A DNA stretch of 64,000 bases from Escherichia phage BP32: the sequence record OR906198.1; one strand, written 5' to 3'. The position numbers and the translations under genes are program-made. This document shows, piece after piece, positions 1,786-64,000 of this stretch (position 1 is its first letter; each line of letters starts with the position of its first letter). Under the pieces are notes generated by a model. That model saw only the letters and a list, made by a program, of their open reading frames with translations. It was not told the origin of the DNA and did not search any database.

Positions 1786-2119
1786 AATTTTGGTTTTATG
1801 TATAGGATTAATTTCATTTTCTGCGTTAGCAAATACATCATACACTGAAATTAGAGAGTATGTAAACCGTACTGCCGCGGATTATTGTGGGAAAAATAAA
1901 GCATGTCAAGCCGAATTTGCGCAGAAATTAATATATGCATATAAAGATGGAGAAAGAGATAAATCAAGTAGATACAAAAATGATACATTGTTAAAACGAT
2001 ATGCTAAAAAGTGGAATACCTTAGAATGTTCAGTTGCGGAGGAGAAAGATAAAGCCGCCTGTCATTCAATGGTTGACCGTTTGGTAGATTCTTATAATCG
2101 AGGATTGAGTACTAGATGA
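1778..2119 (+). CDS. hypothetical secreted protein (vs position)
   Basis: 113 aa ORF with N-terminal hydrophobic signal-like segment; ATG overlaps upstream stop. Confidence 0.5.
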   Translation: MTKILVLCIGLISFSALANTSYTEIREYVNRTAADYCGKNKACQAEFAQKLIYAYKDGERDKSSRYKNDTLLKRYAKKWNTLECSVAEEKDKAACHSMVDRLVDSYNRGLSTR

Positions 2120-2595
2120 TTGTAAAATATATCAAGGGCGATATTGTCGCCCTATTTCTTCAAGGTAATATTATTGCGCACGGGTGCAATTGTTTTCATA
2201 CAATGGGCTCTGGCGTAGCAGGTCAATTAGCAAGAGCCTATCCCAAAATTTTAGAAATAGATAAAACCACTACTGAGTACGGTTCTCGTGATAAATTAGG
2301 CGATATGTCTATTGTTTTTAAACATAATCCTACGGGATTTGGTATATGCTATAACTTGTATACGCAATACGAACCGGGTCCTAATCTTGATTATGGTGCT
2401 TTAGTAAACTGCATGATAGAATTAAATCTACAGGCAGAGACCCTTTTGTTTAAACCAGTAATTTATATTCCACGCATAGGTTGTGGTATTGCTGGTGGTG
2501 ATTGGGATAAGGTTTCTAAATTAATCGACATGTTTACTCCTGATATTGATTTAATAGTGGTGGATTATGAAAGTACATTACCCGCATCCGTTTGA
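2116..2595 (+). CDS. macrodomain protein (ADP-ribose binding/processing fold)
   Basis: GDI..(10)..IIAHGCNCFHTMGSGVAGQL and later IGCGIAGGDWDKV align by eye to the macrodomain NAAN...GGGV and G-x-G-x-G motifs. Confidence 0.6.
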   Translation: MIVKYIKGDIVALFLQGNIIAHGCNCFHTMGSGVAGQLARAYPKILEIDKTTTEYGSRDKLGDMSIVFKHNPTGFGICYNLYTQYEPGPNLDYGALVNCMIELNLQAETLLFKPVIYIPRIGCGIAGGDWDKVSKLIDMFTPDIDLIVVDYESTLPASV

Positions 2596-9610: not shown

Positions 9611-9913
9611 ATGTTATACTCAAAGGCTCGTGAAATTTACGAAACTAAAATTAAAGAAGCAGTATTTCAATTCGCAACGACAATGCGATGGACAAATGAC
9701 TGGGAGTATTCAAAAAATCATAAGAAGCCCATGGTGACAAGAAAGGCTCATATGTTAGTGTTAATAGACCGTGAGCAGATTAAAGCCCGAGAAGCCCTCC
9801 AGAATCATAAAAAGGCTGCCTTTGAATGGTTTATGGATAATACTGCTCCTGAGACTAAGAAAGCGGTAAGTGCATGGTTCAGTGGAAAAAATTGTGAAAG
9901 AAGTTTCTTTTAG
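9611..9913 (+). CDS. hypothetical protein (100 aa)
   Basis: GGAGG RBS 5 nt upstream of ATG 9611. Confidence 0.55.
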   Translation: MLYSKAREIYETKIKEAVFQFATTMRWTNDWEYSKNHKKPMVTRKAHMLVLIDREQIKAREALQNHKKAAFEWFMDNTAPETKKAVSAWFSGKNCERSFF

Positions 9914-9915
9914 TT

Positions 9916-9945
9916 GTTTACAAGACTGTTCCTCTGTGGTACTAT
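9916..9945 (+). promoter_or_regulatory. T4-type early promoter with conserved leader
   Basis: near-identical copy of 63098-63157. Confidence 0.65.
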
Positions 9946-9973
9946 ACAACTATCAACTACGGAGGAACAGAAA

Positions 9974-10501
9974 ATGAACGCTAAAGATATTTTCAACTTG
10001 GTAAATTACAACGATGGTAAATTTAAATCTGAAGCACAAAGCAAGTTCTTTAACGACATCTCAATCGGAGGTGAAATCACTGTTGATGGAGGACAAATTT
10101 ACAAATCCCGTTGGAATTGGATCGTTATTATTGATGAGATCGGTATTGTAGAAATTTACAAGAATACGAATAAAAATAGTACATTACACTGGTCTCGTGA
10201 TACTAACGAACAGTACAAAAAGGATAAAGCATCTAAATTATCTCGTGTAACTCAAGAAGATATTGAGTTCATCAAGAAAGATATTTTAATGTATGATAAC
10301 TTAATTGCTGAAGAGCAAGCTGTTATTGATAAATTTGACGAGATTAAAGCTTCTCGTGAAATTCCTGATTTTATGAAAGAATCAGTAAATGAACGATACA
10401 CTCTCATTTCAGAGCGTATTGAAACTTACAAAAAGCAAAGAGCTGAACGCCAAAATACTCTTCGGAAGTTTGAAGAACGGTTAAAGACGGTACTCGCATA
10501 A
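9974..10501 (+). CDS. hypothetical protein with C-terminal coiled coil
   Basis: GGAGG RBS; 175 aa. Confidence 0.6.
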   Translation: MNAKDIFNLVNYNDGKFKSEAQSKFFNDISIGGEITVDGGQIYKSRWNWIVIIDEIGIVEIYKNTNKNSTLHWSRDTNEQYKKDKASKLSRVTQEDIEFIKKDILMYDNLIAEEQAVIDKFDEIKASREIPDFMKESVNERYTLISERIETYKKQRAERQNTLRKFEERLKTVLA

Positions 10502-61495: not shown

Positions 61496-61508
61496 GGGCT
61501 TCGGCCCT
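61496..61508 (+). promoter_or_regulatory. GCTTCGGC hairpin without T-run (RNA stability or processing element)
   Basis: gggc-ttcg-gccc right after the rIIB stop. Confidence 0.35.
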
Positions 61509-61523
61509 TAACTAAGGAAAATT

Positions 61524-61718
61524 ATGTTAGGTTATCAAGCACGAGTAAAAGAAGAATACGATCAATTAATGCTCAAAATTAATGCACTGAGCAAATTTTT
61601 AGAAAGCACAAAGTTTCTAACTATTAATGAAGTTGAACAAGAATTGCTGCTTTCACAGTTTATCTCAATGAAATCTTACGCAGATTGTTTAGAGAAAAGA
61701 ATTGCACAATTCAAATAA
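61524..61718 (+). CDS. hypothetical protein (64 aa)
   Basis: AAGGAAA RBS. Confidence 0.5.
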   Translation: MLGYQARVKEEYDQLMLKINALSKFLESTKFLTINEVEQELLLSQFISMKSYADCLEKRIAQFK

Positions 61719-61720
61719 TT

Positions 61721-61740
61721 AAGGGGCTTCGGCCCTTTTG
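61721..61740 (+). terminator. rho-independent terminator (GCTTCGGC hairpin)
   Basis: ggggc-ttcg-gccc followed by tttt. Confidence 0.65.
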
Positions 61741-61754
61741 TTTTAAGGAAAATT

Positions 61755-62081
61755 ATGATTTATTGTATGAATATCGGTGATTCCGACATAAAAGAAATTT
61801 CTCTACACGGTAATCATCACGCTAATATTGTGTACTGCAATAAATTCGAGTTTGGACATGAAAAACTTGGAGTTCTTTACTGCAATGATGTTATAGTCAT
61901 GGATAAAAAGAATCTCGATGAACTTGATCGTAATTCTTTAGATGAAAATGATCGAATTTATTATGGTACTCTTAAAGTATATAACGCTTATCTTAGTGGT
62001 AAAAAGGAAAGTCTAAATGCAGAAAACGAATCCAGGTTTACAGAGACTATTTCAGATTCCGACATTTACCCTATCGAATAG
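61755..62081 (+). CDS. hypothetical protein (108 aa)
   Basis: AAGGAAA RBS. Confidence 0.55.
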   Translation: MIYCMNIGDSDIKEISLHGNHHANIVYCNKFEFGHEKLGVLYCNDVIVMDKKNLDELDRNSLDENDRIYYGTLKVYNAYLSGKKESLNAENESRFTETISDSDIYPIE

Positions 62082-62574
62082 TGACTTGACTAGTGAAATG
62101 AAGGTCAAAATTGCTGATACAGCAAGATACTCTTTAAAACAAAACCCGAACCAGGATAAAGCAGAAGTTATCGAAAGATGCCGTATCGCTGTGTACGCAG
62201 AGTTTTTTGTAGCAGATTGGCTAAGCGGGTATGTCAACAAAGGCCAAGAGGATGTTAATGATCCGTATACATACGCATGGGATGTATTGGCACATCCAAA
62301 ATACTGCGGGCTTCGTGTAGAAGTTAAGACACATCAAACTGACTCACGTTGGATTTCGGTAACAACAGGATGCAGCGGAGAGTATCCATACGGTTCTGGA
62401 ATAAATCTAGGGCCCATTCTGAATCATCAAGTCGCTGACTGTATAATTATATTCAACACTAAAGAAATTCATCCAGGTGTCATCCAGTACACTCCGAAGT
62501 TCATCGGTGATAGAGAAGACCTTCGTAAGGTTGTAAGAAAAAGCAACTACAACGGATGGTATCTTTCTATTTAA
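62017..62574 (+). CDS. denB: endonuclease IV (cytosine-DNA-specific), assigned by position and size
   Basis: 185 aa as recalled for T4 DenB; located downstream of rIIB; start overlaps upstream ORF by 65 nt. Confidence 0.55.
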   Translation: MQKTNPGLQRLFQIPTFTLSNSDLTSEMKVKIADTARYSLKQNPNQDKAEVIERCRIAVYAEFFVADWLSGYVNKGQEDVNDPYTYAWDVLAHPKYCGLRVEVKTHQTDSRWISVTTGCSGEYPYGSGINLGPILNHQVADCIIIFNTKEIHPGVIQYTPKFIGDREDLRKVVRKSNYNGWYLSI

Positions 62575-62591
62575 AAAATTTTCACAAAACA

Positions 62592-62621
62592 GTTTACATA
62601 CCACAAGGACCGTGGTACTAT
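62592..62621 (+). promoter_or_regulatory. T4-type early promoter with conserved leader
   Basis: gtttacataccacaaggaccgtggtactat. Confidence 0.65.
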
Positions 62622-62648
62622 ACAACTATCAGCTACGGAGGAGTAAAA

Positions 62649-62912
62649 ATGAAATTTAAATTTTATTACGCTAAACATAAAATAACTGATGAGTTTGTGT
62701 CAGTTGAATATTCTAGCGACGATGAAGGTATGATTTATACTCGCTTGGGACTATCGCATTGGGAGTCTGATACGCCTTATTTTTCAACTCCCGAAGAAAT
62801 TACACGCTTAGTTAATGGTCATATGAATGACCACTGGAATGTAATTCTTTCAGATAGTCTTAAAGCGGCTATTAATAGTAATGAAATGAAAATCGCTGAG
62901 ATTGAACTATGA
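62649..62912 (+). CDS. hypothetical protein (87 aa)
   Basis: GGAGGAG RBS. Confidence 0.55.
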   Translation: MKFKFYYAKHKITDEFVSVEYSSDDEGMIYTRLGLSHWESDTPYFSTPEEITRLVNGHMNDHWNVILSDSLKAAINSNEMKIAEIEL

Positions 62913-63097
62913 GTTCATTGTGGTGGTGTTTCGTTTGGTTAATTAGTATTCCATTAATTTGTTTAACATTTACTTTTATGATGAGGTTATTATGAAAATT
63001 TTAAATTCTGTACTTATTGCTTGTGCGTGGTGGGTTGCGCAAGTTTCGGCAGTAGTGATTGGTATTCACATTTATTACGAATATTTTTAAAAAAGTT

Positions 63098-63127
63098 GTT
63101 TACAAGACTGTTCCTCTGTGGTATTAT
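63098..63127 (+). promoter_or_regulatory. T4-type early promoter with conserved leader
   Basis: near-identical copy of 9916-9976. Confidence 0.65.
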
Positions 63128-63154
63128 TACCCTATCAACTACGGAGGAACAGAA

Positions 63155-63268
63155 ATGAAAAAGATTGTTAAAGCTATATGGAATGTAGTTATAATACTAG
63201 TAGTTTTGAGTATATTCCCAATCGTTTTAATGATTGATGTATTAAACGCTTACTTTGGATTTATATGA
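63155..63268 (+). CDS. tiny membrane peptide (37 aa)
   Basis: GGAGG RBS; hydrophobic. Confidence 0.4.
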   Translation: MKKIVKAIWNVVIILVVLSIFPIVLMIDVLNAYFGFI

Positions 63269-63275
63269 GGAAAAT

Positions 63276-63473
63276 ATGAAGCGTAAACGCAGTGCTTTTA
63301 CATTTATTGAATGGTTTTTCGATAATATTTTTCCAGCTTTATTCATTTTCATGCTGATTTTCGCCTTAGGTTCAGTTGTAGTTGGAATCTATTTGATGGC
63401 AGTTGTCGGAATGGATATTCACCAAAATGGTTTGAAATCTGTGGTTGAAACAATTTGGAATGGTGTAAAATGA
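63276..63473 (+). CDS. small membrane protein (65 aa)
   Basis: GAGGAAAA RBS; 2 TM helices. Confidence 0.5.
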   Translation: MKRKRSAFTFIEWFFDNIFPALFIFMLIFALGSVVVGIYLMAVVGMDIHQNGLKSVVETIWNGVK

Positions 63474-63588
63474 TGAATTTGCTGAGCGGTTGGTTTTATA
63501 TTCTCATGTTTTACATTGGCGCAAATTTCCCATATTGGATGGGATGGTCAACAACTGCATTTGGATTTTATACTCCTTGAGGTGAATT

Positions 63589-63804
63589 ATGAAAATTTTT
63601 AAAGATGTAAAAGTTGGTGAAATTTTCTGTTTAGATAATGGTGATCAGTTAATTCGTATTTCGCCTCTTAAGAGCACCAGCGAGAAAATGACAGTTAATG
63701 CTACTTTAGCAAATAACAGTAATGAACGTTTCTGTATTGAAAATGATACTGAAACTTATACTGTAGAAGAGTTTTGGGAATTGAGCGTCGACTGCGACGA
63801 TTAA
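63589..63804 (+). CDS. hypothetical protein (71 aa)
   Basis: GAGGTGA RBS. Confidence 0.55.
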   Translation: MKIFKDVKVGEIFCLDNGDQLIRISPLKSTSEKMTVNATLANNSNERFCIENDTETYTVEEFWELSVDCDD

Positions 63805-63863
63805 TTTATCGGCCGTGTGTATTCATGCGGCCTTGGAGTAGAAAATAATTAGAGGAAATTAAA

Positions 63864-64000
63864 ATGAAATATATGACTGTTACTGATCTGAATAATGCAG
63901 GTGCTACTGTTATTGGTACAATCAAGGGCGGTGAATGGGTTTTTGGAACTCCGCATAAAGACATTTTGTCTAAACCTGGATTTTACTTTTTAGTGAGCAA
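63864..64000 (+). CDS. ndd: nucleoid disruption protein, 3-prime truncated at window edge
   Basis: N-terminus [25 protein letters not shown] recognised; AGAGGAAA RBS. Confidence 0.85.

Follow-up and report, generated by a model that had tools for sequence, protein, structure and literature searches.

Small inner-membrane peptides of 20–65 aa consisting of a single helix are known from bacteria, where the regulators AcrZ, MgrB, MgtS and CydX bind larger membrane proteins and the type I toxins Ibs, Ldr and Hok damage the membrane directly. Phages, too, encode small inner-membrane or periplasmic proteins, among them Imm and Sp of T4, which are made early, and gp15 of HK97. T4 also stimulates phosphatidylglycerol synthesis of its host, an effect which to our knowledge has been unexplained since the late 1960s. 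In the T4 deletion sa-delta-9, which takes out 52.1, ac, stp, ndd, ndd.1–6 and denB, phospholipid synthesis is no longer stimulated and the phage yield drops by half (PMC6071114). This stimulation is the only phenotype mapped to the interval in T4.

The small genes located there are not new, as T4 annotation has carried them for decades as “hypothetical predicted membrane proteins”. Their T4 transcripts are classed as early (PMC9697503, Table S2). Promoter-early stem-loop (PeSL) cassettes of T4-type phages have been described by Arbiol et al. (2010; PMC2839356) and Comeau et al. (2014; PMC4122927).

Results

Correspondence of the cluster to T4 ndd.2–ndd.6

The window analyzed comprises 64,000 nt of Escherichia phage BP32 (OR906198.1), and the genes treated here lie near its right end (Table 1). 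This end of the window is that of a T4-like Tequatrovirus, showing 94–98% identity to 491 Tequatrovirus records (up to 97.4%). The five plus-strand ORFs which a first-pass annotation had proposed between denB and ndd exist, and the coordinates of four agree; the first, of 28 aa, lies one base upstream of the interval given for it (62910–62996). Judged by sequence, they correspond one-to-one to the T4 genes ndd.6, ndd.5, ndd.4, ndd.3 plus ndd.2a, and ndd.2. From denB to ndd, the genes follow each other in the same order and on the same strand in T4 and in the annotated Tequatrovirus records compared, and each peptide matches its own PHROG family (E-values of 2e-16 to 3e-30). With T4 (NC_000866, T4p270–T4p275), the cluster has position, order, strand and early-promoter context in common, at 89–100% amino acid identity.

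Table 1. Features of the interval from denB to ndd in phage BP32 (window coordinates).
Feature	Position	Strand	Remarks
denB, endonuclease IV, 185 aa	62017–62574	+	ORF; matching records annotate DenB-like DNA endonuclease IV; left boundary
Early sigma-70-type promoter 1	62593–62621	+	TTTACA-17-TACTAT, TG-extended; before orfA, ndd.6, ndd.5
orfA, 87 aa, soluble	62649–62912	+	ORF and PHROG match (phrog_2390); RB69ORF270c-like
ndd.6 homolog, 28 aa	62909–62995	+	phrog_8851; one hydrophobic core; ORF, PHROG, alignment, tblastn
ndd.5 homolog, 32 aa	62992–63090	+	phrog_5011; one hydrophobic core; ORF, PHROG, alignment, tblastn
Early promoter 2	63099–63127	+	TTTACA-17-TATTAT, extended −10; −35 at 63099–63104, −10 at 63122–63127
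PeSL-type cassette	63099–63152	+	promoter 2 plus 15-bp stem, 63108–63122 pairing with 63138–63152
ndd.4 homolog, 37 aa	63155–63268	+	phrog_3098; basic N-terminus, then one predicted transmembrane segment
DUF7248 protein, 65 aa	63276–63473	+	phrog_2401; Pfam match; T4 ndd.3 plus ndd.2a
ndd.2 homolog	63470–63580	+	phrog_4135; 36 aa from 63470, 35 aa from conserved ATG 63473
ndd.1, 71 aa, soluble	63589–63804	+	last gene of second early unit
Two hairpins	63780–63805 and 63811–63832	+	end of ndd.1 and just 3′ of it; z = −2.7
ndd, nucleoid disruption protein, 5′ part	63864–64000	+	right boundary; continues past window end

Three differences from T4 were found. First, the 65-aa gene is intact in the window, whereas a 1-nt gap splits it into ndd.3 and ndd.2a in T4; the two T4 entries are one DUF7248 gene, split only in the reference sequence, which is a new detail. 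Second, the window contains orfA before ndd.6, a gene absent from T4, which retains just its last 8 codons. Third, the upstream ATG behind the annotated 42-aa Ndd.4 is specific to T4 and absent from the window; the conserved ndd.4 start yields 37 aa, likewise a new detail. For ndd.2, the second ATG is probably the true start.

The 65-aa protein matches Pfam DUF7248 (PF23906) with 71.9 bits (gathering threshold 27 bits; E-value of 4.4e-20) over model positions 4–57 of 58. It shows the traits of this family, i.e., a basic N-terminus, a single transmembrane segment, here predicted as one long helix, and the motif [EQ]xGLKS[VI]VExIW[NE]G, present as the conserved C-terminal NGLKSVVETIWNG; the order of transmembrane segment and GLKSVVExIWxG motif is that expected of DUF7248. 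Since no function is assigned to DUF7248, membership gives no mechanistic explanation. Besides the PHROG families, Pfam families exist for at least two members of the cluster, the DUF7248 protein and ndd.4. The structure prediction for the neighboring ndd.1 is of low confidence (pLDDT 49.6).

As had been supposed, most of the genes are in practice below ORF-calling thresholds. Of 15 annotated Tequatrovirus records, 3 list ndd.6, 10 list ndd.4 and 12 list ndd.2. The labels “outer membrane protein”, “periplasmic protein” and “naphthalene 1,2-dioxygenase” given to cluster genes have no basis. The first-pass annotation, for its part, missed that T4 already lists the cluster as ndd.2–ndd.6. A literature search for ndd.2a, the other ndd.N gene names, DUF7248 and the locus tags found no paper on these genes.

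Coding evidence

The comparative set was taken from GenBank phage records, since a search of IMG/VR for related loci gave just 5 loci. Conservation of the reading frames in related phages had been named in advance as a check that could refute the genes; about 493 Tequatrovirus genomes have kept every one of the five frames, and the frames are undisrupted in ~99% of ~500 genomes. In tblastn searches with the five peptides, full-length copies were found in 493/494, 493/493, 603/603, 515/518 and 647/658 matching records. Among 22 aligned genomes, variable sites number 20/7/50 at codon positions 1, 2 and 3, respectively (chi-square, P = 6e-9), and pN/pS is 0.07 for DUF7248, 0.10 for ndd.5, 0.10 for ndd.2 and 0.20 for ndd.6, compared to about 0.5–5.5 or not computable values in shifted frames. 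The value of 0.63 for ndd.4 is based on 6 variable sites, which are too few substitutions for the test. mRNA folding was considered as the cause of the missing synonymous change in ndd.4 and rejected, as z = −1.15 is an ordinary value.

Indels within ndd.6 and at the ndd.4 start keep the frame, and within the genus the amino acid sequences hardly vary. In other genera, protein homologs are recognizable at 40–61% identity, where the DNA is unalignable except for part of ndd.4. The comparative sequence data show that the five ORFs are real genes which encode proteins and are held under purifying selection.

Predicted membrane character and topology

The products are very small and hydrophobic. 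The best 19-residue Kyte–Doolittle window of four peptides reaches 2.18–3.05. Among the ATG ORFs of 25–70 aa in all six frames of the whole window, 8% reach at least 2.1, so that the chance of finding at least four of five ORFs at this level is P about 2e-4. The maximum for ndd.2 is 1.17; this peptide has no charged residue at all, and F, W and Y make up 12 of its 35 residues. With its weak hydrophobic core, it may not cross the membrane but lie at its interface.

The peptides had been proposed to be mostly single- or double-pass; four clear hydrophobic cores fit mostly single-pass peptides, but none looks double-pass. A double-pass 65-aa protein was ruled out, since its hydrophobic stretch is modeled as one continuous helix: the AlphaFold model shows a short N-terminal helix followed by one long helix (pLDDT 80). 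Moreover, Shigella phage Sf25 carries a natural ndd.4::DUF7248 fusion, which retains only a single transmembrane segment together with the C-terminal motif.

Summed over 22 DUF7248 members, the net charge is +66 on the N-side and −57 on the C-side. By the positive-inside rule, ndd.4, ndd.5 and DUF7248 would have their N-terminus inside and their C-terminus outside, and by its hydrophobicity each peptide would form a single-pass helix in the host cytoplasmic membrane. Both insertion and topology are predicted here from hydrophobicity and the positive-inside rule only.

Transcriptional and translational signals

Several genes of the cluster had been described as lying behind early promoters with strong ribosome binding sites. 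Early units are indeed suggested by the promoter consensus, yet there are two promoters for the five genes. Promoter 1 would drive orfA, ndd.6 and ndd.5, and the PeSL-type cassette would drive ndd.4, DUF7248, ndd.2 and ndd.1. A “predicted early promoter” is annotated at the position of promoter 1 in the record of Yersinia phage fPS-65; gene content beside promoter 1 differs among phages, and a stem located there (62586–62660) is insignificant (z = −0.7).

The second promoter resembles the described PeSL cassettes: a sigma-70-like promoter, a stem-loop over spacer and −10, a Shine–Dalgarno sequence and a start codon (ATG 63155) follow each other, the element is repeated elsewhere in the genome (a near-identical copy of ~62 nt is found at 9912–9977), and it adjoins small genes of variable presence. 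Its stem (dG of −23.2 kcal/mol, z = −4.9) couples the promoter spacer with the Shine–Dalgarno sequence of ndd.4. It differs from PeSL in that the Shine–Dalgarno sequence itself forms the 3′ arm; consequently, read-through transcripts would mask the ribosome binding site of ndd.4.

Recognizable Shine–Dalgarno sequences precede ndd.4 (GGAGG), the 65-aa gene (GAGGAAAA) and ndd.5 (GAGG), but none was found for ndd.6 and ndd.2, which start on stop/start overlaps (ATGA and ATGATG, respectively). The stop of orfA overlaps the ndd.6 start in this way, the ndd.6 stop the ndd.5 start (ATGA), and the stop of the 65-aa gene the ndd.2 start, an arrangement by which ribosomes would be handed over from gene to gene. 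The hairpins at the end of ndd.1 may, judged from their position and folding, act as an attenuator before ndd.

Expression and dispensability in T4

Transcription in the first minutes of infection has been demonstrated for T4, and the promoter consensus suggests the same for BP32. In shotgun proteomics of T4, ndd.1 protein was detected as early, but no ndd.2–ndd.6 product was detected (Class_P = NA; PMC9697503). Such an outcome is expected for hydrophobic peptides of 28–65 aa. A Ribo-seq study of T4-infected cells was not found in the literature. Translation of ndd.2–ndd.6 is thus predicted from sequence conservation.

Every one of the genes ndd.2–ndd.6 was scored “Not Fit” by CRISPRi-ART in T4 (PMC11879866) and “Non-essential” by HIDEN-SEQ, so that all are dispensable in the laboratory. 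Within the published T4 knockdown and transposon-insertion conditions consulted, no phenotype was recorded for ndd.2–ndd.6. Natural loss of ndd.2 occurs in phages slur02 and SP21535.

Distribution across T4-like genera

Other T4-like genera carry other combinations of these genes, namely ndd.4, DUF7248 and ndd.1 in Gaprivervirus, an ndd.4-like gene and DUF7248 in Winklervirus, ndd.4 and ndd.2 in Marfavirus, and orfA, ndd.6, an unrelated 36-aa peptide and ndd.1 in Mosigvirus. As far as sequence comparison shows, the peptides assort independently between genera, which is a new detail. The member with the widest distribution is ndd.4, and ndd.4 and DUF7248 are the oldest pair.

Discussion

The peptides most likely play an accessory part in modulating the inner membrane of the host. 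Each would be a separate, dispensable and condition-specific factor which binds or perturbs a component of the host envelope, and no obligate complex among them would be formed. The bacterial small membrane regulators and type I toxins serve here as a comparison of functional class only, as they have no homology to the cluster. We consider it quite probable that the identity of the cluster as the T4 ndd.2–ndd.6 set and this general model hold together.

The envelope process most plausibly affected would be the stimulation of phospholipid and phosphatidylglycerol synthesis after infection. However, the interval deleted in sa-delta-9 comprises 13 annotated genes, so that the lipid phenotype is not assignable to these five, and a link between cluster peptides and phage-stimulated lipid synthesis is unlikely. 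That T4 stimulates phosphatidylglycerol synthesis by means of one of the five peptides is a hypothesis, albeit a less exotic one than the mimicry discussed below.

Alternatively, the peptides could neutralize membrane-associated abortive-infection or other defenses which are missing from laboratory strains, just as the neighboring rIIA/rIIB counter RexAB. Strong conservation of genes which are non-essential on K-12 or B would fit such a counter-defense, as would the location in a hyperplastic region adjoining the host-interaction genes rIIB, stp and ac, and the change of peptide combination from genus to genus, typical of arms-race genes. On the other hand, the invariance within the genus is unlike that of fast-evolving anti-defense proteins, and the HIDEN-SEQ defense-system screens name none of the genes as conditionally required, with no mention in the main text and q = 1.0 in the one comparison consulted. 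No relation emerged from PADLOC and NCBIfam models either, which gave only a chance-level KwaA match for ndd.4 (E-value of 0.008, 13.8 bits). A counter-defense role is possible, but we would not expect it.

Superinfection exclusion, which the first-pass annotation had proposed next to host takeover, appears improbable. Here one or several peptides, especially DUF7248, would act from the inner membrane to keep out the DNA of secondary or competing phages, as T4 Imm and HK97 gp15 do. Early expression and the predicted inner-membrane location are compatible with it, and the tail NGLKSVVETIWNG of DUF7248, which would be periplasmic, resembles a tape-measure repeat unit, e.g., GMKSVVETIWQG in P0016 and NGVKTVVETVWNG in P0020. 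Indeed, a narrow DUF7248 profile matched tape-measure proteins among 1.8 billion proteins with E-values of 1.6e-6 to 3e-4. However, with the broader 22-member profile these matches faded (E-values of 0.3–2.4, high bias scores), so that the resemblance is one of a short motif only. Furthermore, imm and sp already explain exclusion in T4, and we know of no exclusion phenotype for ndd.x genes. Imm/Sp families were absent among the Pfam and PHROG matches; Imm, Sp and HK97 gp15 have no sequence similarity to the cluster peptides, and Imm, with 83 aa, has two transmembrane segments, unlike the peptides described here, which are predicted to be single-pass. It is very improbable that the conserved, probably periplasmic tail mimics one tape-measure repeat and that DUF7248, anchored early in infection in the inner membrane, thereby disturbs the membrane channel built by the tape-measure proteins of competing phages; if true, superinfection exclusion across phages would have gained a novel mechanism.

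Finally, the idea that the ORFs arose by chance in AT-rich DNA and that the interval matters as regulatory or recombination DNA alone could draw on its PeSL-type cassettes, on the T-rich strand, where 15% of plus-strand ORFs of 25–70 aa are hydrophobic, and on the missing proteomic detection in T4, but it is already contradicted by the comparative sequence data, i.e., third-position variation, low pN/pS in the annotated frames only, intact frames and homologs beyond DNA alignability, as well as by an Rfam search of 62400–64000, which gave no match, and has next to no probability.

The result carries small weight as a discovery; its practical value lies in the correction of inherited annotations and in a narrowed question. 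Around 100 small early genes of T4 are without known function, and for their study the present five stand out as truly constrained; all five lie inside the one interval that has to be present for the phage to induce phospholipid synthesis.

Gene Identity and Coding Constraint

The final 2 kb of the window are 90-97.4% identical to 497 phage records, nearly all from Tequatrovirus (T4-like phages infecting Escherichia, Shigella, Yersinia, and Salmonella); early transcription follows the + strand. The small-ORF cluster reported between denB and ndd in the first-pass annotation was confirmed by the ORF coordinates, with the first ORF corrected by one base. In a three-way alignment, the five ORFs map exactly to ndd.6, ndd.5, ndd.4, ndd.3 plus ndd.2a, and ndd.2 of the T4 reference, in which the annotated order is denB, ndd.6, ndd.5, ndd.4, ndd.3, ndd.2a, ndd.2, ndd.1, ndd. 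Because of this exact fit onto annotated genes, the cluster is a rediscovery; T4 annotation has long held these genes as "hypothetical predicted membrane proteins". Product names without basis have spread through matching records, such as 'naphthalene 1,2-dioxygenase' on ndd.4 and ndd.1, or 'outer membrane protein' and 'periplasmic protein' on single-helix peptides.

Coordinates of the features discussed (window positions unless a retrieved phage locus, L, is named) and full-length hits per matching record in tblastn searches of 50,697 phage records with each peptide as query
Feature	Position	Strand	Size	Full-length/matching
Hairpin-RBS unit, copy 1	61496-61526
denB.1-like ORF	61524-61718		64 aa
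Hairpin-RBS unit, copy 2	61724-61757
Promoter-like site 1	62593-62621
orfA	62649-62912		87 aa
ndd.6	62909-62995	+	28 aa	647/658
ndd.5	62992-63090	+	32 aa	493/493
Putative PeSL cassette	63094-63157		~62 nt
Near-identical cassette copy	9912-9977		~62 nt
Promoter-like site 2	63099-63127
Stem, 5' arm (promoter spacer)	63108-63122		15 bp
Stem, 3' arm (Shine-Dalgarno region)	63138-63152		15 bp
ndd.4	63155-63268	+	37 aa	603/603
65-aa DUF7248 gene	63276-63473	+	65 aa	493/494
'ndd.3' in T4 reference	L002 (NC_000866) 2049-2129		26 aa
'ndd.2a' in T4 reference	L002 (NC_000866) 1933-2055		40 aa
ndd.2	63470-63580	+	36 aa	515/518
ndd.6 homologue in LH01	L031 1601-1687		28 aa

All five frames are retained in an alignment of the interval from the window and 21 related genomes (22 in total). 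Of the 77 variable sites within the frames, 20, 7, and 50 lie at first, second, and third codon positions, respectively (P = 6e-9). The 65-aa gene has a pN/pS of 0.07, ndd.5 and ndd.2 of 0.10 each, and ndd.6 of 0.20, compared to approximately 0.5-5.5, or not computable, in the two shifted frames; the value of 0.63 for ndd.4 derives from just six variable sites and is, hence, uninformative. In-frame indels add a Trp to ndd.6 of PD112 and Met-Lys at the start of ndd.4 of phage FN. ndd.2 is frameshifted in slur02 and lost its start through a 12-nt deletion in SP21535, and in one metagenomic contig two extra nucleotides are inserted at the end of ndd.6. The first-pass annotation had taken a lack of frame conservation in related phages as evidence against its reading; the frames are clearly kept, both across the relatives and in the tblastn records. 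That the ORFs are non-coding and arose by chance is contradicted by these comparative data and extremely improbable.

Only two variable third positions occur in the 37 codons of ndd.4 across 22 genomes (P ~3e-4 versus its neighbours), a scarcity of synonymous change for which no RNA structure or Rfam family accounts. ndd.4 is also the sole part of the cluster with DNA-level alignability to Gaprivervirus.

Hydrophobicity and Predicted Topology

Four of the five peptides reach a 19-residue Kyte-Doolittle maximum of 2.18-3.05. Only 8% of short ATG ORFs in all six frames of the window are equally hydrophobic, and the chance of four in five consecutive ORFs being so is P ~2e-4. The proposed hydrophobic character holds as a strong core for these four and weakly for ndd.2 (maximum just 1.17), which has no charged residues and 12 aromatic residues among 35.

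DUF7248 (PF23906), the family of the 65-aa protein, has a basic N-side, a single transmembrane segment, and a C-side that is acidic and contains the motif [EQ]xGLKS[VI]VExIW[NE]G; summed net charges are +66 and −57, respectively (n = 22 members). Based on this asymmetry, an N-in, C-out orientation is predicted. The AlphaFold model of the 65-aa protein (pLDDT 80) consists of a short N-terminal helix followed by a single long helix. A 62-aa protein of Shigella phage Sf25 (P0007) is a natural in-frame fusion of the ndd.4 transmembrane segment with the C-terminal half of DUF7248, which fits a shared membrane orientation of both.

An exhaustive profile search found only 27 representative DUF7248 proteins among 1.8 billion, and all those traced to their source lie in phage contexts. 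The search also surfaced tape-measure proteins (P0012, P0016, P0020, P0025); the C-terminal motif NGLKSVVETIWNG (63420-63470) resembles a tape-measure repeat unit, e.g., GMKSVVETIWQG in P0016. With a narrow profile the match reaches significance, but the broad family profile gave E-values of 0.3-2.4 with high compositional bias. A relationship was not upheld; the likeness is treated as a motif-level curiosity, and it is also the most novel, if very improbable, reading of the tail.

Distribution Beyond Tequatrovirus

Small hydrophobic ORFs occupy the denB-ndd slot in each T4-like genus examined, in differing combinations: orfA, ndd.4, DUF7248, and ndd.1 in Gaprivervirus (VR7, SP18); an ndd.4-like 40-aa peptide and DUF7248 in Winklervirus (Serratia phage CHI14); orfA, an ndd.6 homologue, an unrelated 36-aa peptide, and ndd.1 in Mosigvirus (LH01); ndd.4-like and ndd.2-like peptides in Marfavirus (Klebsiella phage P545). 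Since the combinations differ between genera, the peptides appear to behave as independent modules, not as subunits of one complex. The ndd.6 homologue of LH01 (50% identity) is missing from the GenBank annotation; it shares an ATGA with the stop codon of the orfA homologue, as in the window.

Expression Signals

The early promoters suggested for several of the genes correspond to two promoter-like sites with extended −10 for five genes. Strong ribosome binding sites were likewise suggested; Shine-Dalgarno sequences are present on ndd.4, the 65-aa gene, and ndd.5. ndd.6 and ndd.2 begin instead at stop/start overlaps (ATGA, ATGATG), which almost all relatives in the 22-member alignment retain.

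Gene content adjoining promoter 1 varies, with two ORFs in ime09 and one, orfA (a soluble protein), in the window. In T4 (L002), RB3 (L011), and RB32 (L013), orfA is reduced to its last eight codons, forming a mini-ORF (MKIAEIEL or a close variant) whose stop still overlaps the ndd.6 start (window 62886-62912). The persistence of this overlap where orfA is absent suggests that ndd.6 relies on translational coupling, perhaps obligatorily. In T4, the endpoints of the orfA deletion lie within AAATGAAA-type microhomology. Among otherwise 95%-identical Tequatrovirus genomes, three or more strongly divergent alleles of orfA occur (pS 0.49), a local mosaic adjoining promoter 1.

Upstream of ndd.4, the spacer of promoter 2 pairs with the Shine-Dalgarno region (−23.2 kcal/mol, z = −4.9), and substitutions at paired positions in relatives preserve pairing. 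A near-identical copy of this element precedes another gene 53 kb away. We consider the element a putative promoter-early stem-loop (PeSL) cassette, described as a gene-shuffling vehicle in T4-type hyperplastic regions (Arbiol et al.; Comeau et al.). Transcripts from promoter 2 would lack the 5' stem arm, leaving ndd.4 translatable, and in read-through transcripts from upstream the ribosome binding site would be masked, since the 3' arm is the Shine-Dalgarno sequence itself.

A GC-rich hairpin (GGGCTTCGGCCC) followed by TAAGGAAAATTATG occurs in two copies exactly 228-231 nt apart, which flank the denB.1-like ORF and may form a repeated terminator-plus-RBS unit.

Corrections to the T4 Annotation

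At codon 2 of the 65-aa gene, the T4 reference is the only sequence to lack one base (ATGAA-CGT). The missing G is present and the frame intact in T4 strain 147, in another assembly of T4 (OZ035787), and in all other phages compared; a further T4 record, OL964735, encodes the full protein, and the ndd.3 length of 82 nt in the T4 annotation of the HIDEN-SEQ study agrees with the intact frame. As the gap is unique to the reference, "ndd.3" and "ndd.2a" are pieces of one gene, now Pfam DUF7248. T4 Ndd.4 is annotated with 42 aa, using an ATG made by a T4-specific C-to-T change within the Shine-Dalgarno sequence; from the conserved start, the predicted protein has 37 aa (site 63138-63157). Since the first ATG of ndd.2 (63470-63475 region) is ATA in five phages, its start is likely the second ATG (63473).

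Experimental Record and Proposed Role

Early transcription of ndd.2 to ndd.6 has been shown for T4, where the transcripts are classed as early; shotgun proteomics detected Ndd and Ndd.1, but not the ndd.2 to ndd.6 proteins (PMC9697503 Table S2). Knockdown using dCas13d scored ndd.2 to ndd.6 each as "Not Fit" (PMC11879866), and transposon mutagenesis as "Non-essential", with nearly all sites tolerating insertions (bioRxiv 10.1101/2025.11.20.689424). The genome-reduced mutant T4_583L (MZ375356, L024) lacks most of the ndd.6-ndd.3 stretch and carries a chimeric 43-aa ORF of the ndd.5 N-terminus and the DUF7248 C-terminus; its viability shows that the interval is deletable. With the sa-delta-9 deletion, which takes out 52.1, ac, stp, ndd, ndd.1-6, and denB, phage yield drops by half and host phospholipid synthesis, above all that of phosphatidylglycerol, is no longer stimulated; the authors of that study describe the ndd.1-ndd.6 products as unknown and several genes of the region as predicted membrane proteins (PMC6071114).

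The first-pass annotation read the cluster as membrane peptides for host takeover or superinfection exclusion. This interpretation is supported in part. Gene identity, coding constraint, and hydrophobic character of the five peptides were demonstrated. Counter-defence by such peptides is conceivable but unlikely, and superinfection exclusion we regard as decidedly improbable. As the most likely mechanism, we rather propose that each peptide would insert into the inner membrane of the host a few minutes into infection and may act alone on some host envelope component, with a benefit that would appear only in conditions that laboratory culture does not mimic.

The cluster is already known and of low interest except for the annotation corrections and the question of function. 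Regarding the latter, a tentative and rather unlikely link of the peptides to the lipid-synthesis stimulation lost in sa-delta-9 is proposed, as this is the only mapped phenotype fitting early inner-membrane peptides.
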